A DNA stretch of 64,000 nucleotides from Candidatus Levyibacteriota bacterium (GTDB lineage Bacteria; Patescibacteriota; Microgenomatia; Levybacterales; UBA12049), in assembly GCA_963722305.1 (NCBI GenBank), contig CAVRKE010000001.1, positions 309,549 through 373,548 of the forward strand, read 5' to 3'. A program made the position numbers and the translations under genes. This document shows, piece after piece, positions 12,436-44,971 of this stretch. The number at the start of each line of letters is the position of its first letter. The stretch's first letter is position 1. The notes under the pieces are model-generated. The model saw only the letters and a list, made by a program, of their open reading frames with translations. It had not been told where the DNA came from and made no database searches.

Positions 12436-13468
12436 AGTCTTTCATTGCCAGCCCAACCGCAATGGTATAATCTGAGGCATTATCGAGTATGGTCTTGGGC
12501 ATCTGCTGAGACGCCAGCACTTTCCAGGGATTGGCGATGGCAGTTTCCAAACCGGAATTATTGGCAAAAAATATTTCAATTCCCGGAAGTTTAGCCGTAC
12601 CTCCCGATAAAATAATTTGTCTGATCGGGGCATCCTCTTTATATTTTTGTGAGTAGAAGGCAATCGACTTTTTAATTTCTCCCAAAATTGAATTGAGGAT
12701 TGGCTCGGTCGCTTTGCCAATTTTACCCCCTAAACTTTTACCGGAAATTCCGTAAACTCTTTTGTATTCTTCCGCTTGCTGTGGAGTTAAACCAAAGTCC
12801 GTCGCAATCGCCCTGTTTATTGCCGCACCGCCGATAGACATTGAATAGGTAAAAACCATGGCACCGCTTCTGACAATGGCAAAAGAGGTACTGATTGCAC
12901 CAATATTAACCACTAAACTGGTAGGGAAGCTGTCATCCAAAACCAATGACCTGATGGTGGCCAAAATTTCTGTTTCCATGGCGTTGACTTGGAAACCGGC
13001 TAAAGCGATTATTTTCTGGTATTTATTGATGAGCATGGTCGGCGCACCAACCATGAGGACTTGCATCTTATCGCCCTGGGCAACGTTAGCAGGTCTTTTC
13101 AAGACATTCCAGACTAGACTAATATTCGATAAAGGAACAGGAATATATTGTTCCGCTTCCCAGTAAATAGCCGACGCCAACTCTCTGTCCGATAAAACCG
13201 GCATATCCAAAACTTTAGTATAAACCTGATTTTCCGGCAAAGCGACATTTACCAATTTTGTTTCCGCTCCGGAGTCTTTAACCGCTTTGGCAATTGCCTG
13301 AGCCATTTCTTCTTCGTCCAACGGCGATTCCGACATCATCCCTTTTGCAGGCACAGGAGTAATCGAGGCAGCCTTTAACATAAAGGCACCCTTCTTACCG
13401 TCAAGAATAACCAATTTAATTGATGTCGCGCCAATATCGAGACCTAAAGCTTTTTTATTCATCTGCAA
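12428..13468 (-). CDS. pilM: Type IV pilus assembly protein PilM (actin-like ATPase fold)
   Basis: ALGLDIGATSIKLV N-terminus; the length and motifs are typical of PilM. Confidence 0.8.
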   Translation of the reverse strand: MQMNKKALGLDIGATSIKLVILDGKKGAFMLKAASITPVPAKGMMSESPLDEEEMAQAIAKAVKDSGAETKLVNVALPENQVYTKVLDMPVLSDRELASAIYWEAEQYIPVPLSNISLVWNVLKRPANVAQGDKMQVLMVGAPTMLINKYQKIIALAGFQVNAMETEILATIRSLVLDDSFPTSLVVNIGAISTSFAIVRSGAMVFTYSMSIGGAAINRAIATDFGLTPQQAEEYKRVYGISGKSLGGKIGKATEPILNSILGEIKKSIAFYSQKYKEDAPIRQIILSGGTAKLPGIEIFFANNSGLETAIANPWKVLASQQMPKTILDNASDYTIAVGLAMKDYE

Positions 13469-13474
13469 CCTAAA

Positions 13475-14383
13475 CTATGGCGAAAAAACCGTGTAAGGAA
13501 AAAGTTCGGCAGGAATTTGCGGAAAACCTTGAAATGCGGTGACTTTTCTTTGGATGTTGTTATTGTCGGCTGAGCCAACCGAAGAAATATTAGTTCCCTG
13601 ATCGGGAAGGTTCGGATCGGCAGGACCACTTTTTGAAGCGGCAATATACGAATCCGAATAAAGCGGATTAACGCTTACCAATAAGGCATTCGTCAAAGAT
13701 AGCGTTGTCTTAAATACTAGAGTAATCCCGTTGCCGACCGGATACGAGCCCAGACTAACTTTACTGCTGTCAAAACCATTGCCCCTAGCCGAAGCACAAA
13801 AATCCTCAGCGTATCTATCCAGATCGAGCTTATTCGGCGTTACGGTTGTGTCTTTGCTGATTACTGACACTTCAATGGCCGTATCCTTCGTTGCGCTCCC
13901 GCAGCCATCGTTAGAATCTCCCCAATAGATGGTTAAACTACCGGTCCAACTGCTGGCGCTTGTCCAGGAACCGACATCGGAAAAATTACTTACTTTAATA
14001 TCAGCAGGATTATCTTTTGAGACATAGCTTTGCGTATTTCCGGATTGCACTAAAAATGTGGTGCCACCGGAAACTTGAGAAATAGTAGTAGTATATTGAA
14101 TATTCGCATTACTATTTAGAGCGACGTTATTGAAGTTGGTTACGTTCGGGTTTACTCTTGTCATTGCCTGCTGTATGCCCGCTTCCGCCGCCGACAGGGC
14201 TTTTTGTGAGTTTACCTGTTCTTGTGAAGTCTTTAAATTAGTAATCGACCTTGAAGCTACCGATAGACCCACGGTCAACGCCACCACCATCACTAAAACG
14301 ACTATTAACAGCGCTTGGCCGTTTTGCTTTTTGAATATAACCATACCTAATATAGAGTAGCAGTAATTTTTAAGCTTTGTCAA
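13475..14383 (-). CDS. PilX N-terminal domain-like minor pilus protein
   Basis: QNGQALLIVVLVMVVALTVGLSVASRS resembles the PilX_N hydrophobic N-terminal segment; Ser/Thr/Asn-rich extracellular part. Confidence 0.5.
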   Translation of the reverse strand: MTKLKNYCYSILGMVIFKKQNGQALLIVVLVMVVALTVGLSVASRSITNLKTSQEQVNSQKALSAAEAGIQQAMTRVNPNVTNFNNVALNSNANIQYTTTISQVSGGTTFLVQSGNTQSYVSKDNPADIKVSNFSDVGSWTSASSWTGSLTIYWGDSNDGCGSATKDTAIEVSVISKDTTVTPNKLDLDRYAEDFCASARGNGFDSSKVSLGSYPVGNGITLVFKTTLSLTNALLVSVNPLYSDSYIAASKSGPADPNLPDQGTNISSVGSADNNNIQRKVTAFQGFPQIPAELFPYTVFSP

Positions 14384-14387
14384 CTTA

Positions 14388-14993
14388 TTAAAGATTATTT
14401 CTTAAAGTCACCGACGTCTGAAAATTTATCTGCGTTTGCTTCTCTATAACGGGTGTGATGCCCGGAGTAGTCGGTTTAGGGCTCAAGTCAAAGTTTATAT
14501 CAATGGTTGGCGGCATACCAGCGTTCGGCTGTTCGCAGGTAAAATAACAATTCGTCACTGTTGTTGTACTTGTGTTAATTAAATCGATTATCGAGGCGGA
14601 CTGGGAAGCAATCGGGTCTGGGTTTGCCGGATCGCAAATAAAAGTTGTCAGATTCTGATCAAATGATTCGATTCTCAGATAATGATACTGATGGGATCCG
14701 CTGGAAACACAACTTGTCGTATAGGTTGTTGGGTCAGTAAAACTGTCGGTATCGTTTATCCCGACAAAACTTTGTGCATAAGCAATCATTTTTGACATTT
14801 GGGAAATTGCATAATTCCCATTCTGTCTGACATCATTTGTCGACACACTTCTACTGCCACTCCTTAAAGCGGAAACTAAAATCGCAGTGATAATCGTACC
14901 AACCGCAACGAGAATAATCATTACCGCCAACAGCTCAATAAGAGTATAACCTTTATCCTTTTCTTGATTATTGTTTATTGGTTTTTGTCTCAT
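14388..14993 (-). CDS. Prepilin-type N-terminal cleavage/methylation domain protein (minor pilin)
   Basis: Leader ending ...KDKG followed by YTLIELLAVMIIL (class III signal peptide). Confidence 0.7.
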   Translation of the reverse strand: MRQKPINNNQEKDKGYTLIELLAVMIILVAVGTIITAILVSALRSGSRSVSTNDVRQNGNYAISQMSKMIAYAQSFVGINDTDSFTDPTTYTTSCVSSGSHQYHYLRIESFDQNLTTFICDPANPDPIASQSASIIDLINTSTTTVTNCYFTCEQPNAGMPPTIDINFDLSPKPTTPGITPVIEKQTQINFQTSVTLRNNL

Positions 14994-15529
14994 GGTGTCG
15001 GCACTGCATTAACATTGGCAAAACACGAATCAAGAGTGACATTGTGGCAATAATGATTACTGTCTGTAACAAGGGAAGGGCATTTTCCATCAGTCCAAGA
15101 AACCTTAACGGTGGCTTTGACATTCCCGTTGCAGGCAATATTGTCATTCGGTGGAGTCGGTGTTACATAGAGAACTTTCAAAAGAATCACTTCCCTGACA
15201 AAAAAAGGGTTGCCTTTTTCATTGTTGATGTTTTGGTTACAGACAAAATTTGTGGCTTGGGAAAAAGTGTTGCTCTGGTCAAGACACCAATAGCTATTGT
15301 TTGATGCGGAACTTCCGGCTCTTGCGTATAATGTAGTCCATGTTTGCGCTTCTCCTCTTATTATTTCCATTCCTTGCTGGGCGTACTGAGTTGCTAAATT
15401 TTGATATTTACTAAAATCCGCATTATTTACAGCTGAAATTGCCGCCACTGTGATGGCGGAAACGATGACGGCTGCCGCCCCTAAAGCGATTAGCGCTTCC
15501 ACCAAACTTTGTCCTATTTGGTTTTTCAT
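14990..15529 (-). CDS. Pilin-like protein with an atypical N-terminus (G/QSLVEALIAL)
   Basis: Short leader MKNQIG followed by a hydrophobic helix with E at +5; Cys pairs in the C-terminal domain. Confidence 0.5.
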   Translation of the reverse strand: MKNQIGQSLVEALIALGAAAVIVSAITVAAISAVNNADFSKYQNLATQYAQQGMEIIRGEAQTWTTLYARAGSSASNNSYWCLDQSNTFSQATNFVCNQNINNEKGNPFFVREVILLKVLYVTPTPPNDNIACNGNVKATVKVSWTDGKCPSLVTDSNHYCHNVTLDSCFANVNAVPTP

Positions 15530-16068
15530 TGGCTGATATTTCCTCCACTATCAACTGCTATCGTTTTTGTCGGATTCGGTGTGGTAAAAGTGCTATAGAT
15601 TACAATATTACCGCTTCCCACAACTCCACCGGTAAGAACTGGGAAAAACACATCTGTAGTGGTAGTGTTGGTTGAATCGAAATAAACACTTTTGGGCAAT
15701 GTTGTTTGAAAGGTGGTATGGGGCGATTCTGTCCCGGAGCACATAATGTAAAAGTAATAATAATTAGAGCCGGGAGGGGTAACCTCAACAATTTTTATTC
15801 CGTATCCGCCAAACGATTGGCCGACGTTGCAAGCTAAGTTATTTTCCGGATAAACCTTAACCTGTGCACCCGACAAAGATTTTGCCGTATTTAGCGCCGT
15901 TAGCAAGTCATTTTCTGCCTGCTGTAAAGTTTGAGTCTGACTGTAACTAACAAATGACGCCACGCCAATCGTTGAAATTGTCGCAATTATGGAAAAAACA
16001 ACTACCAGCTCAAGTAAGGTAAAACCCTTTGGCTGGCGTAGCAAACGGGCAGAGAAATGGTATTTCAT
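15526..16068 (-). CDS. Prepilin-type pilin (G/FTLLELVVVF)
   Basis: Class III signal peptide with a conserved Glu at +5. Confidence 0.7.
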   Translation of the reverse strand: MKYHFSARLLRQPKGFTLLELVVVFSIIATISTIGVASFVSYSQTQTLQQAENDLLTALNTAKSLSGAQVKVYPENNLACNVGQSFGGYGIKIVEVTPPGSNYYYFYIMCSGTESPHTTFQTTLPKSVYFDSTNTTTTDVFFPVLTGGVVGSGNIVIYSTFTTPNPTKTIAVDSGGNISQ

Positions 16069-16538
16069 GGGTTGGTTACTTTGTAATAATACTTGGTTGA
16101 GCAGCTGGCGGCGCCATTACAAGTACCGTCATTGTTCACGCCCTGGCTATCGGCCGTGTTTTCCAAACAAGCACAGAGTGTATAGGTTGAACCTCCACCG
16201 AAGTAATAATATGCGCCTCCATTATAATTACTGGCCACATTACCGTTTGGGTCACAGGGAATTGTTTGCATATAGACCGTAGTGCCACTACTTAAAGACA
16301 CTCCGCAACCGGCCGGATAATTTGTCCCGCTGGTAGGATATTGCCCATTGTCTGAACGGTAAATTTCCAGAGCCGCCTGAATTTGCCTGATATCCGATTT
16401 TCTTTGCGCATCCCTGGCTCTTTGCCTGACCCCGATAAAGTTGACCATTAAAAGCGTGGCTAAAACTCCGATAATGGCAATGACGATGAGCAATTCGATG
16501 AGCGTAAAACCCTTCACTGAATTTTTAATTTTTTTCAT
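16065..16538 (-). CDS. Type IV pilin / pseudopilin
   Basis: MKKIKNSVKG/FTLIELLIVIAIIGVLA... is canonical; C-terminal Cys. Confidence 0.75.
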   Translation of the reverse strand: MKKIKNSVKGFTLIELLIVIAIIGVLATLLMVNFIGVRQRARDAQRKSDIRQIQAALEIYRSDNGQYPTSGTNYPAGCGVSLSSGTTVYMQTIPCDPNGNVASNYNGGAYYYFGGGSTYTLCACLENTADSQGVNNDGTCNGAASCSTKYYYKVTNP

Positions 16539-17113
16539 GGCGACTGATTTGGGCTACAAATTCCGAAATTACAGACTGTTCCTGATCCGCTGCCACATGT
16601 TGCTCCCGACGGTCGATTGGGACAGGCTGCGCCTTTATTGCAAGTGGCCGGATCACTTCCCCTATCTAGACTAGCATAAAGACAATATCCCTGTCCATTA
16701 GCCGAATAATAAACGTAGGCCTTGGTTGGAGACGCCGGGTCTTTAGGCAATATGTTTATGTATGGTTGCCAGCTTGTTCCCCAGGCCATGTTACAAGGAG
16801 CGGAAGGACATGAGGTGTTATTTAGCGCATTGATAATTAAAAAGTTATTTGTACTGGCCGGATATCGTCCCGCATCTTGGTAGTAAGTTTCTAAAGCTCT
16901 CTGGATTTGAGCCAGGTCGGATTTTCGCCGGCTGTCGTTGGCTTTTTGGAATTGGGCTAAAGGGTCTAAAGCAGCAATAGTAATGGTAGCCATAACGCCT
17001 ATAATTGCCACTACAAGAATCATTTCTATCAAAGTAAAACCTGTCTTAATTTTTATCTTCATCATTATTTTAAGGCTGGCATGGGACAAAACATGTATTA
17101 CCATTTCCGCCAT
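16535..17113 (-). CDS. Type IV pilin; the true start is probably the internal ATG at 17062 (leader MKIKIKTG/FTLIEM)
   Basis: GFTLIEMILVVAIIGVMA motif; a Cys-rich C-terminal domain. Confidence 0.7.
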   Translation of the reverse strand: MAEMVIHVLSHASLKIMMKIKIKTGFTLIEMILVVAIIGVMATITIAALDPLAQFQKANDSRRKSDLAQIQRALETYYQDAGRYPASTNNFLIINALNNTSCPSAPCNMAWGTSWQPYINILPKDPASPTKAYVYYSANGQGYCLYASLDRGSDPATCNKGAACPNRPSGATCGSGSGTVCNFGICSPNQSP

Positions 17114-18023
17114 CTCTTATGCAATATGAACCGTTTCCGGGTCCTTCGTCTTCACAGTAAGTGCCTGGGTTACCGGGAATTTGTGGTGCATATCTTGCAT
17201 CATGGCAATAACAGCCGGGGGGAGTAGGCGTAGGATTACCGCCACCAGCTCCGCCACCTCCGCCAGCACCAGGGCTACCAGTGGGGGTGCCTCCGCCGCC
17301 GCCTGCAGGAGCACCACCTCCACCGCCTGAGGATTCAGACGGACCGGAAGGCACAGGTGTGAAACTTAGAGTGATATTACATTTTACCTCACCGGAGATA
17401 ACACAATAATTATAACCGCTCGGATTATTGCTGGGGAAACAGGATGACGAGCCGGAACCAAGTTGTTTCAAAGGACAGGCAGTTGAGAAATTAGAAGTTT
17501 TTACCACTTTTGCGTAAAGCACGTTCCACTGCGGACAACTTGAATCCACCGTATCCGGCTCATAGGCATAATTGGCCGAGCCGCCGAGCGACGGATCGCC
17601 GGGCACCTTTTCCATATAAACCGTGCCGTTGCTGCCTACCCAGGCAGTTCCGCTGTCCGGAAGGCTTTGCGGATAACAACCGGTATCGTTGTAATAAGTA
17701 TCAAGAGCGGTTTGCAACTGTTTTAAGTCCTGTCCACGCTGTGCATCCTCGCCTTTTTGGATTTGGGCTACCGGATTTAACGCGATAAGTATCACCGTTG
17801 TTAATATCCCCAGAATGATAAGCGTCACTAACAGCTCAATGAGGGTAAAACCAAACGGCGATTGAAAATTGAAAATTGAAAATTGAAAATTGTTTTTTAG
17901 CCGCCTAACAAACGAAGTACTTGGGAATAAATTAAATTTCCCCAAAAAAGACTGATGACGGCGCCCAAAACTAAGAATGGGCCAAAAGGAAGAGTGGCAT
18001 TTCTGAAACTTTTTTTCTTCCAT
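17070..18023 (-). CDS. Large pilin-like protein with a Gly-rich low-complexity linker and a Cys-rich C-terminal domain; start uncertain
   Basis: G/FTLIELLVTLIIL at residues 58-70; the ORF from the ATG at 18023 overlaps the pilD 3' end by 126 nt and contains the (ATTGAAA)4 tract; no canonical start codon between the pilD stop and the cleavage site. Confidence 0.6.
   Translation of the reverse strand: MEEKKFQKCHSSFWPILSFGRRHQSFLGKFNLFPSTSFVRRLKNNFQFSIFNFQSPFGFTLIELLVTLIILGILTTVILIALNPVAQIQKGEDAQRGQDLKQLQTALDTYYNDTGCYPQSLPDSGTAWVGSNGTVYMEKVPGDPSLGGSANYAYEPDTVDSSCPQWNVLYAKVVKTSNFSTACPLKQLGSGSSSCFPSNNPSGYNYCVISGEVKCNITLSFTPVPSGPSESSGGGGGAPAGGGGGTPTGSPGAGGGGGAGGGNPTPTPPGCYCHDARYAPQIPGNPGTYCEDEGPGNGSYCIRDGGNGNTCFVPCQP
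17861..17892. repeat. Heptanucleotide tandem repeat (ATTGAAA)x4 plus a partial unit, in the pilD-pilin junction/leader
   Basis: Units at 17861-17867, 17868-17874, 17875-17881 and 17882-17888, then ATTG; the unit length is not a multiple of 3. Confidence 0.9.
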
Positions 18024-18712
18024 ATAATTAGTATGATACCCATTAGTGCTCCTGTCAAGAAAGCCAAGTACAGGCTAACAATTATCTTCGGAAAGCCTAA
18101 GAAAAGTCCTAATAAAAAGGCCAGTTTGATGTCTCCGCCGCCCATTGCTTGTTTTTTAGTCAGGAGAGAAAATACCAGCGAAATAATCACAAAGAACAAA
18201 AATGCGCCAATTCCGGAAAGAAGATTAATGATTAAAGATTGTTGATTAAAGAATAAAAGATAACCTAGGGTAACTATCGCGGCGGGGAAGAGGATTTTGT
18301 CCGGAATAATGCCTGATTTTAGGTCGGTGAAAAAAATGACGATAAAGGATGAAATTACCAAAAGATAGTAAAATAAAGTGATTAATGATAATGGATTAAT
18401 GATTAATGAACTAAAATCTGTAATCTGTAATCTGTAATCTGTAATCATCAAGTAAGTCAGCGCAAACATTATTCCTGTTGTAATCTCTATTGTTGGATAA
18501 AAAAGTGGCAGTTGATGTTTGCAATACCGGCACCTGCCTCTTAATAAAACGAAGGAAAGTAGGGGAAGCAGGTCATACCAGCGAAGATTTTTTTGGCAAA
18601 ATTCACAATGCGAGTGGCCTTTAACCACCGTTTCGTTCCGCGGAATTCGGTCAGTTAGAACCCCCAAAAAAGAACCGACAAATAATCCTATCAGCAGCAA
18701 AAATAAAATCAT
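17897..18712 (-). CDS. pilD: Prepilin peptidase (A24 family)
   Basis: N-terminal CxxC...CxxC zinc-binding motif; multiple TM segments; GGGD(IK) catalytic region. Confidence 0.85.
   Translation of the reverse strand: MILFLLLIGLFVGSFLGVLTDRIPRNETVVKGHSHCEFCQKNLRWYDLLPLLSFVLLRGRCRYCKHQLPLFYPTIEITTGIMFALTYLMITDYRLQITDFSSLIINPLSLITLFYYLLVISSFIVIFFTDLKSGIIPDKILFPAAIVTLGYLLFFNQQSLIINLLSGIGAFLFFVIISLVFSLLTKKQAMGGGDIKLAFLLGLFLGFPKIIVSLYLAFLTGALMGIILIIWKKKSFRNATLPFGPFLVLGAVISLFWGNLIYSQVLRLLGG
18418..18445. repeat. Heptanucleotide tandem repeat (CTGTAAT)x4 inside the pilD coding sequence (encodes ITDYRLQITDF)
   Basis: Four perfect 7-nt units at 18418-18445; adjacent ATTAATG near-repeats at 18381-18408. 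Confidence 0.9.
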
Positions 18713-18746
18713 TAAATTAAGTATAGCAAATTAGTCACGTGGAAGA

Positions 18747-19325
18747 TTAGGAGTGTGTCGATGTACACCAGAAGCACCCGTCGCCGTTGTGACCTGCGCT
18801 GGAAGGTACTCCATTAGTAAACACGCAAAGATGTGTTGTCCCAGCAGTACCGTCTGATTTAAGCAATGCTATTTTTTGCTGGGATTTTGACTGAGGCTGG
18901 AAACAGGCAATGACATCGTTATTTACTGCATCATAAGTGACATAAATGTCCTGCAAATCATTTTTATCCTGTGCAAACGCCTGTTTCAACTCGTTTTCAG
19001 CAGTCAATGCGGTTACGCACGTTGCCATGCCTGGTGCTGGATCTAAAAGATTGACCGCTCCAGTGGGTGGAGTTCCACCATTGCAGCTAGCTCCGTTAGT
19101 ATCCCACGGAAAAGCATTGTGAGTAGCGTAATACCTTAATAAGGCATCGTTGAATTCAACTGCAGTATTTTTAGTGTTGGAATCGGCGGCTTTTTTAATT
19201 TGTTCAAACGGATCAATCGTGGCGACTAAGGCGGCGGCTAAAACTCCGAGGATACCGATGACGACCAACAGTTCAATCAGGGTAAAACCGCTGTTTTTCT
19301 TGAATAACTTAAGAAAACTTCTCAT
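18747..19325 (-). CDS. Type IV pilin (major pilin candidate)
   Basis: MRSFLKLFKKNSG/FTLIELLVVIGILGVLAAA; located between pilC and pilD; two Cys pairs. Confidence 0.75.
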   Translation of the reverse strand: MRSFLKLFKKNSGFTLIELLVVIGILGVLAAALVATIDPFEQIKKAADSNTKNTAVEFNDALLRYYATHNAFPWDTNGASCNGGTPPTGAVNLLDPAPGMATCVTALTAENELKQAFAQDKNDLQDIYVTYDAVNNDVIACFQPQSKSQQKIALLKSDGTAGTTHLCVFTNGVPSSAGHNGDGCFWCTSTHS

Positions 19326-19380
19326 CTATATATTAATATTACTCACATCCGAAAAAGTTTGTCAAGCCCCCAGTTTAAAG

Positions 19381-20583
19381 CTATTGGATACTGGAAATAA
19401 GGCTGTAAATCGGCGTAATTATTGAAATAATTAAAAAAGCCACGCCAATTCCCAGGACCACCATAATAAACGGTTCCATTGCCGTGGTTAAGCCCTTGAC
19501 TGTTTCGTCAACCTCCCTTTCGAAATATTCCGATGCCTTGTTTAGTGTCTCGTCAATTTTACCTGTCTGTTCGCCGATTTTTACCAGTTGAACCAGAAGA
19601 GAAGGAAAAAGCGGATTATAACTCATCGCATCACCGATAGTGACGCCTTTTTCAACCTGGCTGGAAACAGCCGTAATTGCATTTTTGTAATTAAGGTTTC
19701 CGGTTGTATCCGAAGTTTCCAAAAGCGCTTGCACGACCAGCGTTCCGGTTCCGACCAACAAACCGAAAGTTCTGGAAAACTCCGCCAAAATAGTCTTGCT
19801 GATTAAGTTGCCAAAAACCGGCAGCTTTAAAATAAAGGTGTCTAAAATTAATCTCCCGTCGGGGGTGTGTGACCACTTGCGAAAACCGAAAAATCCCAGC
19901 ACTACGGCAATTAAGACAATCGGCCAAAAAGTTACCATTGCGCTTGATATACCGATGACAATTTGTGTCGGCAAAGGGAGGGGAACATTTAAATTTTGAT
20001 AGAGTATGGACAGCTGGGGCATCACATAAACCATCATAATCATCATCACTACCACCATCAAAATAACTACTATCACCGGATACATTAGCGCCGACCTAAT
20101 GGTGCTTTTTAATTTTTCCTGTTTTTCCAGGTTATCCGCCAACCTGGCTAAAACCTTGTCCAAAAGGCCCGATTGTTCTCCCGCTTTAATAATTGAAATA
20201 TAAATCGGCGAAAAAACTTTTGGATGTTTCTCGATTGCCTGGGCCAAGGTTTTACCTTCCTCTACGTCATTAATGATGGTGGTTACAATCTCTGCCATAT
20301 GCGCATTCGGCATCTGGTCTTTTAAAATATCCAGAGCGCGCATTAAGGTCAAGCCCGAAGCAAGCATCGAGGAAAGTTGCCTGGTAAAAAGCACCAAATC
20401 GGAATTTTTGACGCTGTTAAACATCGGCAGATAATTCCAAAATTGATTATCAATTCTGGTAATCTGAATGGGGGTTAATTGCTTTGCCCGTAAATAATTT
20501 GCCGCCTCGTCAATATCTTTAGCATCTAAAAGACCTTGGGATAATTTTCCTTCTTTGGTTGCAGCTTTATATCTTAGTCTCAT
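19381..20583 (-). CDS. pilC: Type IV pilus assembly platform protein PilC (GspF family)
   Basis: About 400 aa with two GspF-type repeats and 3 TM segments. Confidence 0.85.
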   Translation of the reverse strand: MRLRYKAATKEGKLSQGLLDAKDIDEAANYLRAKQLTPIQITRIDNQFWNYLPMFNSVKNSDLVLFTRQLSSMLASGLTLMRALDILKDQMPNAHMAEIVTTIINDVEEGKTLAQAIEKHPKVFSPIYISIIKAGEQSGLLDKVLARLADNLEKQEKLKSTIRSALMYPVIVVILMVVVMMIMMVYVMPQLSILYQNLNVPLPLPTQIVIGISSAMVTFWPIVLIAVVLGFFGFRKWSHTPDGRLILDTFILKLPVFGNLISKTILAEFSRTFGLLVGTGTLVVQALLETSDTTGNLNYKNAITAVSSQVEKGVTIGDAMSYNPLFPSLLVQLVKIGEQTGKIDETLNKASEYFEREVDETVKGLTTAMEPFIMVVLGIGVAFLIISIITPIYSLISSIQ

Positions 20584-20659
20584 ATTTACTAATTTCGTTT
20601 GCTACTTTCGGATTTTATTCCTCAGTCCCTCAACCTACGGTCTCGGGATCTCACTTCGT

Positions 20660-21727
20660 TCAACCCACCATTCTTAACAGTTCTTCGGGTCTTAAGGAAT
20701 AACTTTTTGCCGTCTCAAGACTAACTGTTCCGGAGAGAACCAAAGAAGCCAAAGATGATTCAAGCGTTATCATTCCCGCGTCCTGTGAAGTTTGGATGAC
20801 CGAATCAATCAAGTGCGTTTTTCCTTCCCTGATGTTACTGGCAATAGCCGAAGTGCCAATTAATACCTCCACTCCGGGAATTCTTCCTCCGTTTATCTGC
20901 GGAATTAATCTTTGCGCAATTACTCCTTTTAAAGTCGACGACAGCTGAATCCTAATTTGGTCTTGCTGGGAAGCCGGAAATGAATCAATAATCCTGTCGA
21001 TGGTTTGCGCCGCCGAGTTGGTATGTAGAGTTGAAAACACCAAGTGGCCGGTTTCGGCAATCGTAATCGCCGCCGCAATCGTTTCCGGATCACGCATTTC
21101 TCCAACCAGTACCACATCCGGGTCTTCCCTGAGTGCACTGCGAAGCGCTAGCGCCCAAGAATGAGTGTCCAAGTCCATCTCCCTTTGCGAGATAATACTT
21201 TTGCCGGTGGAATAAACATATTCAATCGGGTCCTCAATCGTCAAAATGTGCACTGCCCGGCTTAAGTTAATCTCGTTTAGCATTGCCGCCAGAGTAGTGG
21301 ATTTTCCATGGCCGGTCGGTCCGGTCACCAACACAAATCCCTGTTTAAGCGTGGTAAAACTATGACAAATTTTCGGAAGATGCAATTCTTCTATGGTCCT
21401 AATGTTTGGTTGTAAAAAGCGGAAGGCGGCGCTTAAAACGCCTCGTTGGTAATACAGGTTCGTTCTGAACCTTCCCAAATCGCCATAAGCCCCTCCGCCA
21501 AATCCAAACGAGAAATCAATTTCTTTATTATTGATTAAAAGCTCTTTTTGTTCGGGTTTTAAGATGGAAAAAATCATCATTTCCAACTCCTGGGGAGTAA
21601 TTACTTGGTAGCTCGATAGATATCTTAGCGCTCCGTCTATCCTGATTGCCGGAGGAATTCCCGGCAAAAGGTGCAAATCCGAAGCGTTATTTTTAATTGT
21701 TAAGTCTAATAACTCATGTATTTCCAT
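20660..21727 (-). CDS. pilT: Twitching motility/retraction ATPase PilT
   Basis: Walker A GPTGHGKST; Asp box; His box (STLHTNSAAQTIDRI); 355 aa. Confidence 0.8.
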   Translation of the reverse strand: MEIHELLDLTIKNNASDLHLLPGIPPAIRIDGALRYLSSYQVITPQELEMMIFSILKPEQKELLINNKEIDFSFGFGGGAYGDLGRFRTNLYYQRGVLSAAFRFLQPNIRTIEELHLPKICHSFTTLKQGFVLVTGPTGHGKSTTLAAMLNEINLSRAVHILTIEDPIEYVYSTGKSIISQREMDLDTHSWALALRSALREDPDVVLVGEMRDPETIAAAITIAETGHLVFSTLHTNSAAQTIDRIIDSFPASQQDQIRIQLSSTLKGVIAQRLIPQINGGRIPGVEVLIGTSAIASNIREGKTHLIDSVIQTSQDAGMITLESSLASLVLSGTVSLETAKSYSLRPEELLRMVG

Positions 21728-21796
21728 AATCCTAGTTTATTAGTCACTAGTTGAGCAGTTACTAGTATCTAGTATCTAACCAACTAATAACTAGTC

Positions 21797-23545
21797 TTAT
21801 TCTTGTGCCACCCTTAGTACTTCTTCAACCGTCGTTACTCCTTGCAAAACCTTGAGGTAACCATCCTGTTTCATGGTGATCATTCCCTCCAATATCGCCT
21901 CTTTTTCAATTGTACCACTATCCGCTCGCTGCAAAACAAGACTGGCAACTTTTTCCGAAACAGGCAGGGTTTCGAAAATTCCTATCCTGCCAAAATAGCC
22001 GGAGTTGCCACATTCCGCGCAGCCTTTTCCTCGATAAAACTTCACTGTTGCATCCGGCTTTTCCGGCGGAAAATATTTACCAAGCACTATCTTCATTTCC
22101 GCCACAATCTGGGCAGGCGGGACATATTCGGCCCGGCAACTGTTGCAAACTTTTCTGACAATTCTTTGTCCTAGCACCGCATTCATGGTTGAAGCGAGCA
22201 AGAATGATTCCGCTCCTAAATCTAAAAGTCTGGGGAGCGCTCCGGCAGCATTTGAAGTGTGCAGAGTAGAGAAGACCAAATGGCCGGTTAAAGCCGCTTG
22301 AATGGCCAATTCGGTGGTTTCGTTGTCACGAATTTCGCCAACCAGAATGATATTGGGGTCCTGTCTTAAAAACGCCCTTAAACCATCCGCAAAAGTTAAG
22401 CCGACTGCCGGATTTATCTGTACCTGGTTGATGCCGGCCATCTGATACTCAATCGGGTCCTCAAGCGTCATAATGTTGACACGCGTGGTATTCAGTTTGG
22501 AAAGAACCGAATAAAGAGTCGTCGTTTTTCCACTCCCTGTTGGTCCAACGACAATAATAATGCCGTGCGGCCGAAGCATCGCCGTTTCCAAATTTCGCAG
22601 TGACGCACCGTTAAGCCCCAACTCCTGAAGTGTCGGGACTCCGCCGGATTTACGCAGGAGTCTCATCACGATTTTTTCTCCGAAAGATGTCGGCAAGACC
22701 GAAATACGCAGGTCAACCTCTTTATCTTCGACTTTAAAATTAAAACGACCATCCTGCGGAGTACGGTGTTCGTCAATTTTCATTTCGGAAAGGATTTTAA
22801 TTCTTGAGATAACCGCCTCCTGGACGCTTTTGGGCAAAGACAACCGGTCATATAAAATTCCGTCAATCCTGTACCTGACCCTAACCCGGTCTTCCTGCGG
22901 CTCAATGTGGATATCCGAAGCACGTGAGGTAACGGCGTACTCCAGAATGGTCGAAACGATTTTGGCAATCGGCGCCTCTTTGATAATCTGGGCGATTTGG
23001 GTGGTGTCGACTGTTTTTACTTTTCCGGCTTCTTCCGTTTCTTTTAAAGCCGCGCCGACTTCTCCGACAATTTCCTGCCGGTACTGCTGGTTAATGGCAT
23101 TTTCCACATCGGTGGGGGAGGAGGCGAAGGTTTTGATGTTTAACCCGGTCTTTTCCCGGACAAAAGTCACTGCTTCTAGGTCTACCGGATTACTCATGGC
23201 TACCGACAGCGTCTGGGTTTTTTCGTCAAAAGCAAAAGGAATTAGCGAAAATCTTTCGGCGACCGCCCTGGGCACATAGCCGACAGCCTGCGGTGAAAAT
23301 GAAGAGGTATCCAGCGTCATAAAAGGGATGCCGAGCAGTTTGGCTTTTTCTTCGGAAAGTTTATCGGGAGTAATAATGTTTAAGGATTCGATAATCGTTT
23401 CTTCGGAAACGCCTTTGCTGGCGCTTTTTACTTTGACATCGTCGTATTGGGTTTTGGTAATCTGCTTATCTGCCAGAAGAATATCCGCCAAAGTTTGGTT
23501 TCCTCCAGTAGTTTGAGATGACAGGTTCTGTGAATCGTCGGGCAT
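21797..23545 (-). CDS. pilB: Type IV pilus assembly ATPase PilB (GspE family)
   Basis: GspE N-terminal domain; Walker A GPTGSGKTTT; C-terminal tetra-Cys (CNSCRAEY...CAECGNSGY). Confidence 0.85.
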   Translation of the reverse strand: MPDDSQNLSSQTTGGNQTLADILLADKQITKTQYDDVKVKSASKGVSEETIIESLNIITPDKLSEEKAKLLGIPFMTLDTSSFSPQAVGYVPRAVAERFSLIPFAFDEKTQTLSVAMSNPVDLEAVTFVREKTGLNIKTFASSPTDVENAINQQYRQEIVGEVGAALKETEEAGKVKTVDTTQIAQIIKEAPIAKIVSTILEYAVTSRASDIHIEPQEDRVRVRYRIDGILYDRLSLPKSVQEAVISRIKILSEMKIDEHRTPQDGRFNFKVEDKEVDLRISVLPTSFGEKIVMRLLRKSGGVPTLQELGLNGASLRNLETAMLRPHGIIIVVGPTGSGKTTTLYSVLSKLNTTRVNIMTLEDPIEYQMAGINQVQINPAVGLTFADGLRAFLRQDPNIILVGEIRDNETTELAIQAALTGHLVFSTLHTSNAAGALPRLLDLGAESFLLASTMNAVLGQRIVRKVCNSCRAEYVPPAQIVAEMKIVLGKYFPPEKPDATVKFYRGKGCAECGNSGYFGRIGIFETLPVSEKVASLVLQRADSGTIEKEAILEGMITMKQDGYLKVLQGVTTVEEVLRVAQE

Positions 23546-33898: not shown

Positions 33899-35941
<2,043 letters not shown>

Positions 35942-38913: not shown

Positions 38914-39005
38914 TTTTTAATTTAAAATTTTAAATTTTTAATCAAATCCTAATGCTTTAATCATTCATTAGAAATTAAGAATTAGAAATTAGAAATTTTA
39001 TTGTT

Positions 39006-41488
39006 ATGGCTGATATCGGAAAACTACAAAATACGGAAATTGCTTTTGAAATGAAACGCGCGTACTTCGACTACGCCATGTCGGTTATTGTTTCCAGGGC
39101 TCTTCCGGATGTCAGGGACGGATTAAAACCGGTCCACAGACGTATTCTGTTTGCAATGCATGAAATGAATTTGACCCACGCCGCCAAATATTCCAAGTCC
39201 GCCAAGATCGTCGGTGAGGTAATGGGAAAATACCATCCCCATGGAGACGTCCCGATTTACGATTCTTTGGTAAGACTTGCTCAGGATTTTTCGATGCGCT
39301 ATCCGCTTGGTTGACGGGCAGGGAAACTTCGGCTCCATGGACGGTGACCCGCCGGCCGCGATGCGTTACACCGAAGCCAGAATGGCCGCCATCACCGCCG
39401 AAATGATGCTGGACATGGAGAAAGAAACAGTCGATTACATCCCCAACTTTGACTCAACCTTAAAAGAACCGGTTTTCCTGCCCAGCCTTTTGCCAAACTT
39501 GCTGCTGATGGGTAGCGAGGGTATTGCCGTTGGTATGGCCACCAAAATTCCGCCGCATAACCTAGGCGAAGTGATTGACGCGGTCGAGTATTTAATTAAA
39601 AAAGCTAAAATTACCATTGAACCAAGATTTACCATCACTTCCGAAGTTACGGTTGACGAACTGCTGGAACTGATTAAAGGTCCGGATTTTCCGACCGCCG
39701 GCGCAATTTATGACTGGACGGAAATTAAAAACGTTTATACGACCGGCCGGGGCAGAATTATTATCCGCGGTAAAGCCGAAATTGAAGATATCGGACAGGG
39801 AAAGAGTGCCATTATCATCACCGAAATTCCCTACCAGGTCAATAAAGCCTTATTGGTGGCCAGAGTTGCGGAACTGGCCAAAGAGAAAAAGATTGAGGGC
39901 ATTTCCGACCTTCGCGATGAGTCCGACCGGCACGGCATCAGGGTTGTGGTTGAACTAAAAAGAGACAGTGCGCCGAAAAAAGTGTTAAACAATTTATTCA
40001 AATACACCGCCTTTCAGACCAGTTTTCCGGCCAACATTGTTGCTTTGGTTGACGGCACGCCGCAAACCTTGAATTTAAAAACCATTCTGGAAGAATTCTT
40101 AAAACACCGCTACCTGGTAGTCAAAAGACGCAGCGAGTTTGAATTAAGGCAGGCCAAAGCCAGACTGCACATTTTGGAAGGGCTAAAAATCGCGGTGGAG
40201 AATATTGACGCGGTAATTAAAACCATTCGCGAATCCAAAGACCAGGATGATGCCAAGAAAAACTTAATGACCAAATTTAAACTAGTCGGACCTTCAAGCC
40301 ACAGCCATCTTGGATATGCAACTAAGACGTTTGGCGGCGCTGGAACGACAAAAGATTGAAGAAGAATACCAGATGGTTAAAGAAACGATTGCTTATCTAG
40401 AAGATTTACTGGCCCATCCGGCCAAAATTTTAATTGTCATCGGCGAAGAGCTGACCAAATTAAAAGAAAAGTATTCCGACCCAAGACGCACCAAAGTCTA
40501 CAAAAGTAAAGTCGGCGAGTTTTCCGAGGAGGATTTAATTCCCAATGAACCAACCGTGGTCACTCTGACCGATACCGGCTACATTAAAAGGCAAAGTTTA
40601 AATAGTTTCCGCACCCAACAGCGGGGCGGCAAAGGCATTATCGGCATGACTACCAAAGAAGAAGACAATATTGCCGAAATCAAGTCCATCGAAACCCACG
40701 ACAACTTATTATTCTTTACCAATAAAGGCAAGGTTTACCAGATTAAAGCTTACGAAATAAACGAATCTTCCCGAACCAGCAAGGGAACCGCCATTGTTAA
40801 TCTTTTGAATATTGAGGCCGGGGAAAGAGTTGAATCTTTTGTCAATTACACGACTAAAGGCTCGGAAGCAAAATATGTTTTCCTGGCAACCAAAAACGGC
40901 ACCGTCAAAAAAAGCGTTTAAACGGAATTTGAAAATATCCGAAAAAGCGGCATCTTGGCCATCAAACTTGATAAAGACGACGAGTTGGTTTGGAGTAAAT
41001 TAACTAGCGGAAACGACGACATCTTACTGGTCACCAGAAACGGGAAGTCAATCCGGTTTTCGGAAAAATCGGTCCGCGGCATGGGCAGAAACACCATGGG
41101 AGTAAGAGGAATTTTGATTAAAAAAGACGCTAAAGACGACCGGGTTATCCAAATGGACGTTGTCGGCAAAAACTTCAAAGTTGGAAGTGTTTACAATTAT
41201 GGAAAAAGGCTTAGGCAAAAAAACTCCGGTCAACGAATTCCATCCGCAGGGCCGCGGCGGGCAGGGAGTAAAAGTGGCCGAAGTAACCGAAAAAACCGGC
41301 AAAGTGGTACTTCGCAAATCATTCCGGAAGGCTCCGAAGAAGTGATTATTACCTCGCAAAAGGGACAAATTGTCAAACTGGAGGTTGCCTCCATACCCAA
41401 ATTGACCCGAGCCACCCAGGGCGTAATTTTAATGCGCTTTTCCGATAAAACCGACCATGTTGCTTCGGCAACGTGCATTGAAAAGTAA
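39006..41488 (+). pseudogene. gyrA: DNA gyrase subunit A, disrupted by four 1-nt indels and one in-frame TAA
   Basis: Canonical GyrA segments occur in alternating frames: ...[26 protein letters not shown] / VDGQGNFGS...; ...KFKL / SDLQATAILDMQLRRLAALE...; KKSV*TEFENIRKSG...; ...EKGLGKKTPVNEFHPQGRGGQGV... / ...SEEVIITSQKG... Frame changes are at about 39304, 40296, 41170 and 41310; TAA at 40919-40921. Confidence 0.85.
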
Positions 41489-42339: not shown

Positions 42340-43429
42340 GAAAAACTTCTAAGCACCACAATAAAACAGCTCCGTAGAAAACATGCGACTGCAAAAGTAT
42401 TGGAACGCTACTTGGGTTTTTAAGATTGAAGGAGATTAGAACGTAAGAAATAATAAGAATGAGAATGAACTTGAGATTTTTTTTGAAGTTTTGAACATAG
42501 AACAGCGTTGCCAAAAACGGAAACAACATAAACACAAAATGGTGCTGCCAGGAAAAATTATTGACGATTAAATTTAGGCTGATTAGTAAACCCAAATGCA
42601 TATTTTGAAGCTTTTCGCTTTTGCGGTTTTTGAAAATTACCAAGAATGAAATTAAAATAAAGATCAATGATAAAGCATCTTTCAACGCTTCCCGGAAAAT
42701 TCCCGCTGGCAAACTCCTACCTAAAAATCCGGTCAAAGCCTGGTTATAATAAGCGGTTTTCCAGCCGGTCAAAAGCGTTGACAGAAAGTTTTGGTAGAAA
42801 TATAAATTGATTTTTGGTCCAACGAGAACAAACGCCAATAAACCAAACACAAGTAATGAGAGGATAAACACTGAAAGAAACCTCCATTTTTTAGTTAGCA
42901 GAAAATAAAAGGGGATAAAAGCCGGAAACAATTTAAGACTGACTGAAAGCGCAAGTAACGGCGCTGACCAAATAAAATTCTTCTTTTGCTTTAAAAAATA
43001 AATTCCCGCCACGAAAATGAGTAGAATAAAATTATTGATCTGCCCCATCCCTAAAGTAAATTTGACGGGAAAGGAGAAACAGACCAAACCTAAAATTATG
43101 CACCCAAACGTTGAGAAAAGCGGTTGTTTGTAAATTTTAAAAATCAGATACACCGAAAGAAATAAAGAAATCAAAGACAACACTGTCCAGAGCTTTTCGC
43201 TGACCACAAACGGCAGCAAAGTCAGTGAGGAAAAAATAACCATTGCCAATGGGGGATAGATGATACCATGTAGATAAGGGTTAAGGCTTTTTACACCATA
43301 ATAATACTGACTAAAATCCGGATAAAAATTTAGCAATAAACTTTTACAAAGAATCAAAAACGAACCAAGAAAAAATAGCAAAGATAAAAGCTTAATTACT
43401 TTTTGCATAAGAAACACACCTCTTGACAA
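42281..43429 (-). CDS. Polytopic membrane protein, possibly a GT-C-type glycosyltransferase-like protein
   Basis: About 11 TM helices, Phe/Leu-rich; no catalytic motif recognised. Confidence 0.45.
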   Translation of the reverse strand: MSRGVFLMQKVIKLLSLLFFLGSFLILCKSLLLNFYPDFSQYYYGVKSLNPYLHGIIYPPLAMVIFSSLTLLPFVVSEKLWTVLSLISLFLSVYLIFKIYKQPLFSTFGCIILGLVCFSFPVKFTLGMGQINNFILLIFVAGIYFLKQKKNFIWSAPLLALSVSLKLFPAFIPFYFLLTKKWRFLSVFILSLLVFGLLAFVLVGPKINLYFYQNFLSTLLTGWKTAYYNQALTGFLGRSLPAGIFREALKDALSLIFILISFLVIFKNRKSEKLQNMHLGLLISLNLIVNNFSWQHHFVFMLFPFLATLFYVQNFKKNLKFILILIISYVLISFNLKNPSSVPILLQSHVFYGAVLLWCLEVFLIWKDSHKLQRRFPSALKH

Positions 43430-43470
43430 TTTAAGTAATCCGTCCTACTATTATTATATAGTATTTATTT

Positions 43471-44247
43471 ATGGCCAGATCATTTAAAGACAAACCGCCG
43501 TTTAAATGGTTTCTTCTTTTTGCTGTTTTGTTTGCACTGCCAATCGTTGTCCTGTCTGCCAACAGCAAAACGAATATTCAGCAACACGCCGCAGCAACTG
43601 TACTTTTCACAGGAGTACTTAAAATACAAATCGTCAATAGAAGTGGCCAAATCATAAACCTTCCTCAAGGGACAGTAAACGTGGTTGGGAACAATATTTT
43701 GGGACCAACACCAACGATATTTGGTGAAATTGCATCAGGCGCAAATGGTTGGACACAAACTTTAAATGAAGGAGAATATGAAATAACAGCAGTTAATGCA
43801 TCTAGCTATAAAGTTTCATTTGCTTACTGTTTTGACTGTACGAAGATTGCGATAACGGCGGGAGGATGGGGCAATTTTCCAAGCGGATTCGCTTACAGTC
43901 CATTTGTGATGGATGGACGTACAACATTAGTATGGGTAAGCTATATGCCCAACAATCCCTGTGTTGCTAAACAATCAAATGGTAAATATTTAGTGGGAGA
44001 AGCTTGCGGAGGAAGTGTTGAAGACAATGGAACCAAGGGAACTTTGTATGATTGCAGCGGTACTGGTTATGCAGTAACCGGTAAAACACAGGTCTGCACT
44101 GACGGTTGCCAGGTCAATAAAAACGCACCAGATGCCTGTATAACCTGTGCATCCCTGGGAGGAAGTTGCAGTTATAGTGGATGCTCCGCCAATCATAAAG
44201 CCATAGCTGGAGATTGTGGCAGTGCTTATATGACATGCTGTAAATGA
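43471..44247 (+). CDS. Secreted Cys-rich protein, paralog 1 (the six-Cys module is C-terminal)
   Basis: Signal/TM segment then ANSKTNIQQHAAA; C-terminal CASLGGSCSYSGCSANHKAIAGDCGSAYMTCCK. Confidence 0.5.
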   Translation: MARSFKDKPPFKWFLLFAVLFALPIVVLSANSKTNIQQHAAATVLFTGVLKIQIVNRSGQIINLPQGTVNVVGNNILGPTPTIFGEIASGANGWTQTLNEGEYEITAVNASSYKVSFAYCFDCTKIAITAGGWGNFPSGFAYSPFVMDGRTTLVWVSYMPNNPCVAKQSNGKYLVGEACGGSVEDNGTKGTLYDCSGTGYAVTGKTQVCTDGCQVNKNAPDACITCASLGGSCSYSGCSANHKAIAGDCGSAYMTCCK

Positions 44248-44347
44248 TTTTATTCTCTGTTTATTGAAACAATACTTAAAAAGGTCGCTTGACAAGAGAA
44301 AAAATAACCTCTACATTATTAATGGACAGAATTTATCGATATTATCT

Positions 44348-44971
44348 ATGGCTAAAAATAAACAAACATCCGGGAGATTTCCACATTTTAAGCTATTCTT
44401 GTTTCTTGCCCTCGTCGTCTCACTCGGATTAACTACTTTAGCCGCAAACACTAAAACAAATATTCAACAACACGCCGCAACAAATTGCGCATCCTTAGGT
44501 GGAACTTGTTCTTACGGCTCATGCCCAACCGGACAAACAGTAATTGCCAACTCTGCAGGAACCTGCTCATCAGATTACATGGTTTGCTGTAAAAATCCTA
44601 TGCCGGCACCGACTGGTCTTAGCGTATCTTATACCTACTGTCAAGAAAAGCAACCAGCAAGCATGGACTATGCATATTATAATGCTATTGTTACTTTCAA
44701 GTGGAAAGCGGTAAGCAATGCTACAGCTTATTTAGTCACCTTGTCTGATAGCACCCCTACTTATACCGGGAGTACTTACCACTATGCGACAAAGACGCAA
44801 GGAGTAACAACACTTACAATATCAAATAATTGGAGTTTTGAGCCAGGTGATAAGCCCTATTGGCAGGTACAGGGATACAATACATATACCAAATACGGTC
44901 CGCTAAGCGCTAAACAATATATTAACTTTAAATGCAACATATGGCCATTACCAACTATACCGCCTACTTAA
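44348..44971 (+). CDS. Secreted Cys-rich protein, paralog 2 (six-Cys module N-terminal, followed by an FN3-like beta domain)
   Basis: Start moved to the ATG at 44348 (MAKNKQ...), which is homologous to the paralog 1 start; ANTKTNIQQHAAT; CASLGGTCSYGSCPTGQ...CSSDYMVCCK; TTGACA-17-TACATT promoter at 44289-44320. Confidence 0.5.
   Translation: MAKNKQTSGRFPHFKLFLFLALVVSLGLTTLAANTKTNIQQHAATNCASLGGTCSYGSCPTGQTVIANSAGTCSSDYMVCCKNPMPAPTGLSVSYTYCQEKQPASMDYAYYNAIVTFKWKAVSNATAYLVTLSDSTPTYTGSTYHYATKTQGVTTLTISNNWSFEPGDKPYWQVQGYNTYTKYGPLSAKQYINFKCNIWPLPTIPPT

Follow-up and report, generated by a model that had tools for sequence, protein, structure and literature searches.

Two adjacent Patescibacteria genes encode putatively exported modular proteins that share a predicted beta-defensin-fold module

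A beta-defensin-like module shared by two adjacent genes

We analysed a 64,000-nt stretch of the genome of a Candidatus Levyibacteriota bacterium (Patescibacteriota; assembly GCA_963722305.1, contig CAVRKE010000001.1, positions 309,549–373,548), referred to below as the window, in which two adjacent open reading frames (ORFs) encode putatively exported proteins that share a small six-Cys module. ORF1 (protein P0003; 43471..44247, +) specifies 258 amino acids (aa), arranged as a leader of type A, a beta-rich region, a second Cys-rich module (module C) and the shared module, and ORF2 (protein P0001; 44348..44971, +; located on a 608-kb NCBI/ENA contig) specifies 207 aa, arranged as a leader of type B, the shared module and a C-terminal beta domain. 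A previous sequence-only reading had described tandem paralogs with a common post-signal motif and a six-Cys module that had swapped position between the C-terminus of one and the N-terminus of the other. BLASTP bears this out, aligning the two proteins in two separate segments, but the sequence-only reading missed that the module matches the beta-defensin family in Cys framework, non-Cys signature residues and predicted fold. The search for the module in other genomes that it had proposed yielded only four further family members among 5.8 billion clustered proteins and 1.84 billion representatives, giving six proteins in four independent contig sets, with a Patescibacteria gene context wherever the contig was long enough. 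NCBIfam assigns a family to none of the members.

The module comprises 34–37 aa, forming the extreme C-terminus of ORF1 (aa 224–258; 44140..44244, +; ending in CCK) and lying directly behind the leader in ORF2 (aa 45–82, TNCASLGGTCSYGSCPTGQTVIANSAGTCSSDYMVCCK; 44480..44593, +). The two copies read C-x6-C-x4-C-x10-C-x6-CC-K and C-x6-C-x4-C-x13-C-x6-CC-K, i.e. Cys spacings of 6-4-10-6-0 and 6-4-13-6-0, as compared with 6-4-9-6-0 in human beta-defensin 1 (hBD1), and both conform to the framework C-x(4-8)-C-x(3-5)-C-x(9-13)-C-x(4-7)-C-C. Within the module segment (ORF1 aa 221–258 and ORF2 aa 42–82), 21 of 41 residues are identical (E=2e-9). In a six-frame regular-expression scan of the window, the beta-defensin-type Cys pattern was confined to ORF1 and ORF2.

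Defensin_beta (PF00711; a 36-position model with a gathering score of 21 bits) was the only Pfam family spanning the module in both whole proteins. When isolated modules were scanned, this family scored 24.5 bits for ORF2 (E=2.7e-5), which is above the gathering score, 20.1 bits for ORF1 (E=6.5e-4), and 16.7 and 15.0 bits for repeats R1 and R2, respectively, of the multi-module relative P0007. It was the top Pfam family for four of the six isolated copies, the matches covering model positions 3 or 4 to 36.

Against the PDB sequence set (177,635 distinct sequences), a single-sequence search with ORF2 returned hBD1 chains only, the ORF2 side of the alignment reading NCaSlGGtCsYgsCP...aGTC...CCK, and the top matches of ORF1 were likewise beta-defensins. 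With profiles built from two, five and nine modules, the E-value of hBD1 was 2e-3, 2.2e-4 and 1.1e-5, respectively, and the nine-module profile also recruited hBD3 (6.7e-4), gallinacin-11 (4.3e-3) and hBD2, with mBD8 among the added members; every PDB match at E<10 in the three profile searches was a defensin. When the cysteines of hBD1 were kept fixed and its other residues were shuffled 2,000 times, scores of about -1 ± 4 bits were obtained (-0.5 ± 4.3 for the nine-module profile), as compared with 19.4, 22.0 and 27.4 bits for real hBD1, values that were reached by 0, 2 and 0 of the 2,000 shuffles with the three profiles, respectively (z=4.9–6.6). Because shuffling of the non-Cys residues abolishes the score, the match does not rest on the cysteines alone. 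The residues shared besides the cysteines include the G-x-C before Cys2 and Cys4, the Tyr after Cys2, the C-P at Cys3 and the CC-K ending. Four Cys and the Gly of the G-x-C before Cys4 are the invariant columns of the nine-module alignment (A5), and Lys follows CC in eight of the nine copies, the exception being CC-A-K in repeat R4 of P0007. As a control, a profile of module C matched nothing relevant in PDB, and Cys-richness alone is thus not the source of the defensin matches.

Structure prediction of the module, which the sequence-only reading had also proposed, was performed with AlphaFold2 on the isolated ORF2 module using a two-sequence alignment (predicted local distance difference test score (pLDDT), 87.5; predicted template modelling (TM) score, 0.56). 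The model contains three strands (residues 10–13, 21–24 and 35–39) and no helix. In a Foldseek search against PDB, ranks 1–15 were all occupied by beta-defensins (AvBD3, hBD2, hBD1 and hBD3) with probabilities of 0.75–1.0, TM scores of 0.59–0.73 and root-mean-square deviations (rmsd) of 1.3–2.2 A (0.71 and 1.3 A for hBD2). The matches below rank 15 were other trans-defensin-fold proteins, including a sea-anemone toxin, alpha-defensins and a tick carboxypeptidase inhibitor; against viral predicted structures, no match of the module was found. The shared module is therefore predicted to be a beta-defensin-fold domain of the trans-defensin type, with a three-stranded antiparallel sheet superposable on hBD1, hBD2 and hBD3. 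It matched no housekeeping domain.

We consider tentatively, and with somewhat less than an even chance of being right, that these modules are genuine trans-defensin homologues in Patescibacteria, carried as shuffled, often tandem modules of exported proteins encoded in a variable locus and probably used in dealings with the host envelope. Several points weigh against the beta-defensin assignment of the module. In the full-length proteins, the PF00711 scores remain below 21 bits (19.8 bits and E=7.8e-4 for ORF2; 11.1 bits and E=0.41 for ORF1), and the Foldseek E-values are weak (0.1–0.8), the domain being tiny. The AlphaFold2 model is not independent of the sequence similarity, since beta-defensin structures were among the training data of the network and its input alignment comprised just two sequences. 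In addition, small Cys-rich folds arise convergently, as exemplified by the cis- and trans-defensins.

The module may instead be a convergent look-alike, namely an independent bacterial mini-domain in which the same Cys spacing and a few glycines occur for structural reasons; this explanation, which fits either of the functional readings discussed below, is a serious possibility although we stop short of calling it probable. The family has very few members, all from a handful of Patescibacteria lineages, with three real matches (ORF1, ORF2 and P0007) in an HMMER scan of the 1.84 billion representatives with a two-module profile, and no intermediates to animal sequences were found. The divergent copies (P0002, contig L003, and R3 and R4 of P0007) have no Pfam match and vary in spacing (7-8-13-5, 3-5-14-5 and 9-5-10-6, the first two lying outside the framework given above), and P0004 carries a 4-Cys derivative. 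Other Cys-rich modules of the same proteins give weak, chance-level matches to unrelated eukaryotic Cys families (Toxin_12, 0.031; Lustrin, 0.02), and defensins are described as a textbook case of convergence (Shafee 2016, as cited in PMC8819291). Against convergence stand the similarity beyond the cysteines, the specificity of the PDB matches for defensins, and the rise in score and the recruitment of further beta-defensins when bacterial copies are added to the profile, which is the behaviour of homologous families.

Leaders, gene starts and architecture of the two proteins

As the sequence-only reading had proposed, both proteins start with a putative signal peptide or signal anchor: aa 1–29 in ORF1 (43471..43557, +), where a basic n-region MARSFKDKPPFK is followed by hydrophobic WFLLFAVLFALPIVVLS, and aa 1–32 in ORF2 (44348..44443, +). 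The post-signal motif follows, i.e. ANSKTNIQQHAA in ORF1 (aa 30–41; 43558..43593, +; found by BLASTP and the six-frame scan) and ANTKTNIQQHAA in ORF2 (aa 33–44; 44444..44479, +; found by BLASTP, the six-frame scan and DNA comparison), both leaders ending with AN[ST]KTNIQQHAA. Over the common part of the leaders (ORF1 aa 9–41 and ORF2 aa 12–44), 19 of 33 residues are identical (E=7e-10), and the string TNIQQH was confined to the two ORFs in the six-frame scan of the window. In the AlphaFold2 model of ORF2, aa 13–49 form a single helix. A weak match of ORF1 to exosortase (E=0.017) falls on the leader and was set aside as an artefact of its hydrophobicity.

Both proteins would be exported via the Sec pathway. 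Cleavage after L-x-A could leave N-[ST]-KTNIQQHAA as a conserved mature N-terminus; alternatively, the leader could be cut after H-A-x-[AST] or be retained as an anchor. Two relatives place 30–50 aa ahead of the hydrophobic segment, an extension that would favour the anchor role. The proteins contain 14 (ORF1) and 8 (ORF2) Cys residues, in line with their earlier description as disulfide-rich, and even counts are expected of fully disulfide-bonded extracytoplasmic proteins.

The program-made ORF list starts ORF2 at TTG 44264, but ATG 44348 is almost certainly the real start, because a public protein collection holds the 207-aa form, because the orthologous leader of the relative P0002 begins at the equivalent position and because a promoter-like site falls downstream of the TTG. 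This site (TTGACA-17-TACATT; 44289..44317, +) and the site preceding ORF1 (TTGACA-17-TACTAT; 43423..43451, +) are consensus matches; in the consensus scan, TTGACA-17-TAnnnT sites were found one each for ORF1, ORF2 and the next gene, SIMPL. A CTTGACAA box is also conserved upstream of both ORFs.

DNA similarity at the 5' ends had been taken as a sign of recent duplication. The similarity itself is present across the ~31-nt motif (84% identity), but the remainder of the two leaders is only 47% identical, and a recent duplication is not supported. At the nucleotide level, leader A of ORF1 and that of P0004, a protein of another lineage, share 75% identity, and the figure for leader B of ORF2 and the P0002 leader is 80%. 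Set against the 47% seen between ORF1 and ORF2 outside the motif, these values mean that both leader types predate the split of the lineages, between which the FolD, SIMPL and XerC proteins are 77–90% identical; the duplication behind the two leaders is therefore old.

The 200-aa beta-type domain formerly assigned to ORF1, a stretch of roughly 180 aa from leader to module, proved to be composite. Its first part, aa 43–161 (43597..43953, +), is indeed a beta-rich region of ~120 aa with one C-x2-C pair, to which no family is assigned, neither Pfam (E<=10) nor the PDB sequence set giving a match, but its second part is module C (aa 162–223; 43954..44139, +), with six Cys in the pattern NPC..QSNGxYxVG..C...LYxCxGxG...C..GC.VN....DxC. 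Module C of ORF1 is 50% identical to aa 48–99 of P0002 and also occurs in a 288-aa protein of contig L003 (984-1850); Pfam, NCBIfam and the PDB sequences yielded no counterpart. The domain, disulfide-rich and uncharacterised, accompanies the defensin-like module in these proteins.

In ORF2, the module is followed by a beta-rich domain of ~120 aa (aa 85–207; 44600..44968, +) that is bracketed by two conserved Cys (C97 and C196). ORF2 and P0004 are 37% identical over 193 aligned columns (E=4e-31), the alignment spanning the corresponding C-terminal domain of P0004. The former FN3-like label of this domain was not confirmed: no Pfam family, the fn3 type included, matched aa 85–207 of ORF2 or the P0004 counterpart at E<=10, and AlphaFold2 predicted an all-beta domain with a pLDDT below 55. 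The whole-ORF2 model obtained without an alignment had a pLDDT of 53.5, and its Foldseek matches were judged meaningless.

Relatives and a variable cassette locus

Three of the relatives were found at the same syntenic locus. P0002 (162 aa) is present in two Logan assemblies in the gene order gyrA-folD-GT87-P0002-SIMPL, and P0004 (181 aa) is encoded on L003, a JGI contig, in the order folD-P0004-288aa-SIMPL-SLT-like-xerC, adjacent to the 288-aa protein (L003 984-1850). In region 6208-8959 of L030, the gene for P0007 (696 aa) is directly followed by one for a 206-aa membrane-anchored cohesin-domain protein (PF00963, 29.3 bits). The leader of P0007 ends in QQTNTQQHAY, its four defensin-like modules stand in tandem with PTPTP linkers between them, and many other stretches of the protein are rich in Cys. 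A dockerin in P0007, suspected by eye, was not supported by Pfam, and cohesin-mediated surface display of P0007 is only a lead.

The same modules recur in these proteins in other orders and numbers, as the earlier description of the proteins as domain-shuffled would predict. Behind leader A, ORF1 carries the beta region, module C and the defensin-like module, and P0004 carries the 4-Cys derivative and a beta domain; behind leader B, ORF2 carries the defensin-like module and the beta domain, and P0002 (L001) carries module C, a Pro-Thr (PT) linker and the defensin-like module. The 288-aa protein has a divergent leader, followed by a knottin-like module, a PT linker, a defensin-like module, module C and a second defensin-like module. 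The first stretch after its leader, CGGAGAQCLSQPCCTGFTCQ, shows a weak match to Toxin_12, a family of spider ion-channel toxin knottins (E=0.031), and may represent another eukaryote-like mini-disulfide module of the cassette system or a chance match.

The synteny of the locus recurs in the independent assemblies L001, L002 and L003, and the flanking proteins are 77–90% identical between lineages while the cargo between them differs. On this comparison, the locus between folD/GT87 and SIMPL is a variable cassette locus in which module cargo has been re-assorted behind conserved leaders, and the conserved ~30-nt motif DNA is a plausible crossover point for recombination. The product of the gene following SIMPL (window 45814-46650, -; L003 2682-3452, -) is rich in Pro and Thr in its N-terminal half, and its C-terminal half weakly resembles lytic transglycosylases or glucosaminidases. 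The window and L003 versions are 39% identical, as compared with 78% for the neighbouring SIMPL and 90% for XerC, and the gene is thus regarded as fast-evolving and envelope-related.

Word-indexed homologue searches with ORF2 and ORF1 retrieved only the queries themselves, P0002 and P0004, and a search with the nine-module alignment gave no match. Three further candidates from the HMMER scan, P0005, P0006 and P0008, were rejected as spurious repeat proteins on reading their sequences. A metagenome-wide DNA scan for the leader motif gave five matches, all by chance in unrelated reading frames or proteins, and two viral-contig scans yielded nothing.

Eukaryotic contamination or a chimeric assembly is effectively refuted as the source of the module. 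The neighbouring gyrA contains frameshifts and a stop, and the sequence quality of the region is to that extent imperfect. The module, however, is present twice in the window, in frame within bacterial ORFs that have leaders of bacterial type and promoter-like sites, recurs in L001, L002 and L003 with the same synteny and in L030, and is part of an identical 258-aa ORF1 protein assembled from a second read set (ERR11594402).

Horizontal transfer, in which the exon for an animal beta-defensin mature peptide was captured by animal-dwelling Patescibacteria or, conversely, animal trans-defensins descend from the bacterial module, seems to us improbable. The best matches are vertebrate beta-defensins, with hBD1 foremost (36–39% identity in the Foldseek alignments), and invertebrate big defensins are not among the PDB matches. 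It is the mature-peptide part of hBD1 that the module matches, from three residues before Cys1 to the CCK ending, and the bacterial distribution of the module is extremely patchy. The module has, on the other hand, already diversified into at least four architectures in lineages with 77–90% identical housekeeping proteins, and any transfer would therefore not be recent. In the genome collection, relatives of the adjacent SIMPL/DUF541 gene come solely from Patescibacteria metagenome-assembled genomes (MAGs), and the closest relative in the genome catalogue (by SIMPL; its contig stops inside that gene and so adds no cassette locus) is labelled SMAG_U14563, a label which we take to denote a soil MAG catalogue and which also speaks against an animal-dwelling source.

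Possible function of the modular proteins

We give about even chances to the view that ORF1 and ORF2 are separately promoted Patescibacteria genes for exported or anchored, disulfide-bonded modular proteins that present a defensin-fold binding head toward the host envelope. What we infer is that their products would be Sec-exported or N-terminally anchored, fully disulfide-bonded and extracytoplasmic, each consisting of a hydrophobic signal, the juxtamembrane motif A-N-x-K-T-N-I-Q-Q-H-A-A and a cargo of interchangeable modules, which recombination at or near the conserved motif DNA would reassort behind the two leader types. On or near the cell surface, the compact disulfide-locked module may serve as a binding head for the envelope of another cell, with peptidoglycan or lipid II, a glycopolymer or the membrane as candidate targets, and may help the cell to attach to, or to manipulate, the bacterial host that such episymbionts depend on. 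The neutral modules of ORF1 and ORF2 would be binders, and the cationic modules of the relatives could also be membrane- or cell-wall-active. Features that suggest this reading are the combination and tandem repetition of domains within one protein, the PT-rich linkers, the neutrality of the ORF1 and ORF2 modules and, in L030, the adjacent cohesin gene; the assignment of binding or adhesion draws on architecture and one cohesin neighbour in a distant relative, which tempers it. For a Patescibacteria genome, the surface or host-directed role suggested earlier is plausible.

An antimicrobial of the defensin type is the main functional rival. In this case, the proteins would be secreted precursors or carriers of modules that kill competitors or the host bacterium, or make them permeable, through attack on the membrane or lipid II sequestration, modes of action known from hBD3 and many defensins; proteolysis at the PT-rich linkers or behind the leader might release the modules first. 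We regard such a weapon as rather unlikely, although the sequence and fold similarity to beta-defensins and the hypervariable locus, typical of antagonistic effectors, are in its favour. The module also forms the extreme C-terminus ending with CCK in both ORF1 and P0002, as in mature hBD1, with a PT-rich linker preceding it in P0002, and the modules of P0002 and the 288-aa protein are cationic (+4, +3 and +3). The known bacterial defensin-like peptides actifensin and laterosporulin are bacteriocins (PMC6989792, PMC5396196). The net charges of the ORF2 and ORF1 modules, by contrast, are 0 and +1 (hBD1, +4), those of R1–R3 of P0007 are 0 to +1, unlike antimicrobial defensins, and the modules are embedded in multi-domain proteins of 160–700 aa with up to four in tandem. 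In ORF1 and ORF2, they are parts of 258- and 207-aa proteins and not free cationic peptides of ~4–5 kDa, and no immunity gene, dedicated transporter or processing protease was seen adjoining the genes.

Genomic surroundings

In addition to the cassette locus, the window carries gyrB, folD (named after the FolD-type product in the syntenic loci) and genes for an H+-pyrophosphatase, GT87, SIMPL, GH18 and a bifunctional penicillin-binding protein. A type IV pilus cluster (11130-23545, -) contains PilM (12428..13468), PilC/T2SSF (19381..20583), a PilT-like ATPase (20660..21727) and PilB with an MshEN domain (21797..23545), all on the reverse strand, together with small unannotated ORFs (13475..19325, -) that probably encode pilins or assembly proteins. 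Type IV pili have been implicated in the host attachment of episymbionts of the candidate phyla radiation (CPR).

The gyrA gene (38900-41488, +) is split into at least three ORFs (39277..40359, 40310..40921 and 40955..41488). Comparison with the intact gene of the relative L001 reveals a minimum of four frame changes, as well as a TAA in place of Leu (KKSV*TEF here, KKSALSEF in L001). The reading frames of gyrB (33911..35932) and of other long neighbouring genes are unbroken. Either gyrA, normally essential, has become a pseudogene here, or the assembly is locally in error.

Two genes downstream of the cassette locus, a GH18-family protein of 515 aa is encoded (47854-49401, +), which has a hydrophobic segment ~110 residues from the N-terminus and is probably extracytoplasmic; its substrate may be chitin-like or peptidoglycan-like. 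An IS1595-family transposase gene (DDE_Tnp_IS1595 and zinc ribbon; 62668-63474, -) is also present; the main contig is ~0.6 Mb in length. No oxidoreductase of the Dsb or VKOR type was found among the ~45 window ORFs scanned against Pfam, the window representing about a tenth of the genome.

Comparison with known systems

Defensins fall into two superfamilies, the cis- and the trans-defensins, and the trans-defensin (beta-defensin) superfamily is thought to be confined to animals. Those known to date from bacteria belong to the cis (CS-alpha-beta) type (PMC11561630). Like the module described here, the actifensins, actinomycesin and xanthusin are small disulfide-rich bacterial units with a very patchy distribution (PMC11561630, PMC8819291, PMC6989792), but they belong to the other superfamily, combining a helix with a sheet and a CxxxC...CxC pattern. 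The present module has the CC ending of the trans type, no CxxxC or CxC pattern and no helix in its model, and no cis-defensin is found among its PDB sequence and fold matches. Similarly, no knottin occurs among its 18–19 hidden Markov model (HMM) matches or 35 Foldseek matches.

Laterosporulin and laterosporulin10 (class IId, Brevibacillus) are likewise bacterial peptides with three disulfides, described as defensin-like and bonded in the beta-defensin manner (PMC5396196). They differ in being free bacteriocins of ~5.6 kDa, not domains of larger proteins, and are absent from the HMM and Foldseek matches of the module. Nor is laterosporulin known to carry the sequence signature of beta-defensins, of which the CC-K ending is a part.

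Among animal proteins, beta-defensin-like domains are repeated or fused in the tick carboxypeptidase inhibitor (1ZLH), the double defensin AvBD11 (6QEU) and ascidian rusticalin (PMC6339383), and such tandem or fused domains have been known from animals only (PMC6339383). Although 1ZLH and gallinacin-11 are among the structural and sequence matches of the module, the partner domains in these animal proteins (a peptidase, or none) bear no relation to the leaders, beta domains and module C of the present family. Invertebrate big defensins, the proposed ancestors of beta-defensins, whose origin has been traced no further back (PMC7203481), also combine a C-terminal beta-defensin-like domain with an N-terminal domain in one polypeptide, but none was found among the PDB matches at E<10, and their hydrophobic N-terminal domain is absent from ORF1 and ORF2.

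The closest resemblance is to the vertebrate beta-defensins (PF00711; hBD1, PDB 1IJV/1E4S), with which the module shares the framework C-x6-C-x4-C-x9-13-C-x6-CC, the G-x-C before Cys2 and Cys4, often the C-P at Cys3, a basic residue after CC (ORF1 ending with CCK like hBD1) and a predicted three-stranded antiparallel sheet that superposes at 1.3–2.2 A. A vertebrate beta-defensin is a cationic peptide of ~40 aa cut from a small prepropeptide, whereas the bacterial module, known from sequence and prediction, lies inside proteins of 160–700 aa in up to four tandem copies and is uncharged in ORF1 and ORF2. In the literature searched, which did not extend to subscription literature, no beta-defensin-type module was described for any bacterium, CPR members included.

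If the module is homologous to beta-defensins, either the fold is older than animals or has passed between them and bacteria, or else an ultrasmall episymbiont has adopted a scaffold of innate immunity as a device for attachment or attack. A bacterial module with the full beta-defensin signature would make it testable whether the fold is older than animals, was transferred or arose by near-perfect convergence, and likewise what role a non-cationic, domain-embedded defensin plays. A small, fast-reshuffling set of secreted proteins in a CPR genome of ~0.6 Mb is of the kind expected to mediate host recognition in uncultivated episymbionts. By its looks, in sequence and in the predicted structure, the module of ORF1 and ORF2 is thus best filed as a beta-defensin-fold domain in a new host and in a new architectural context.

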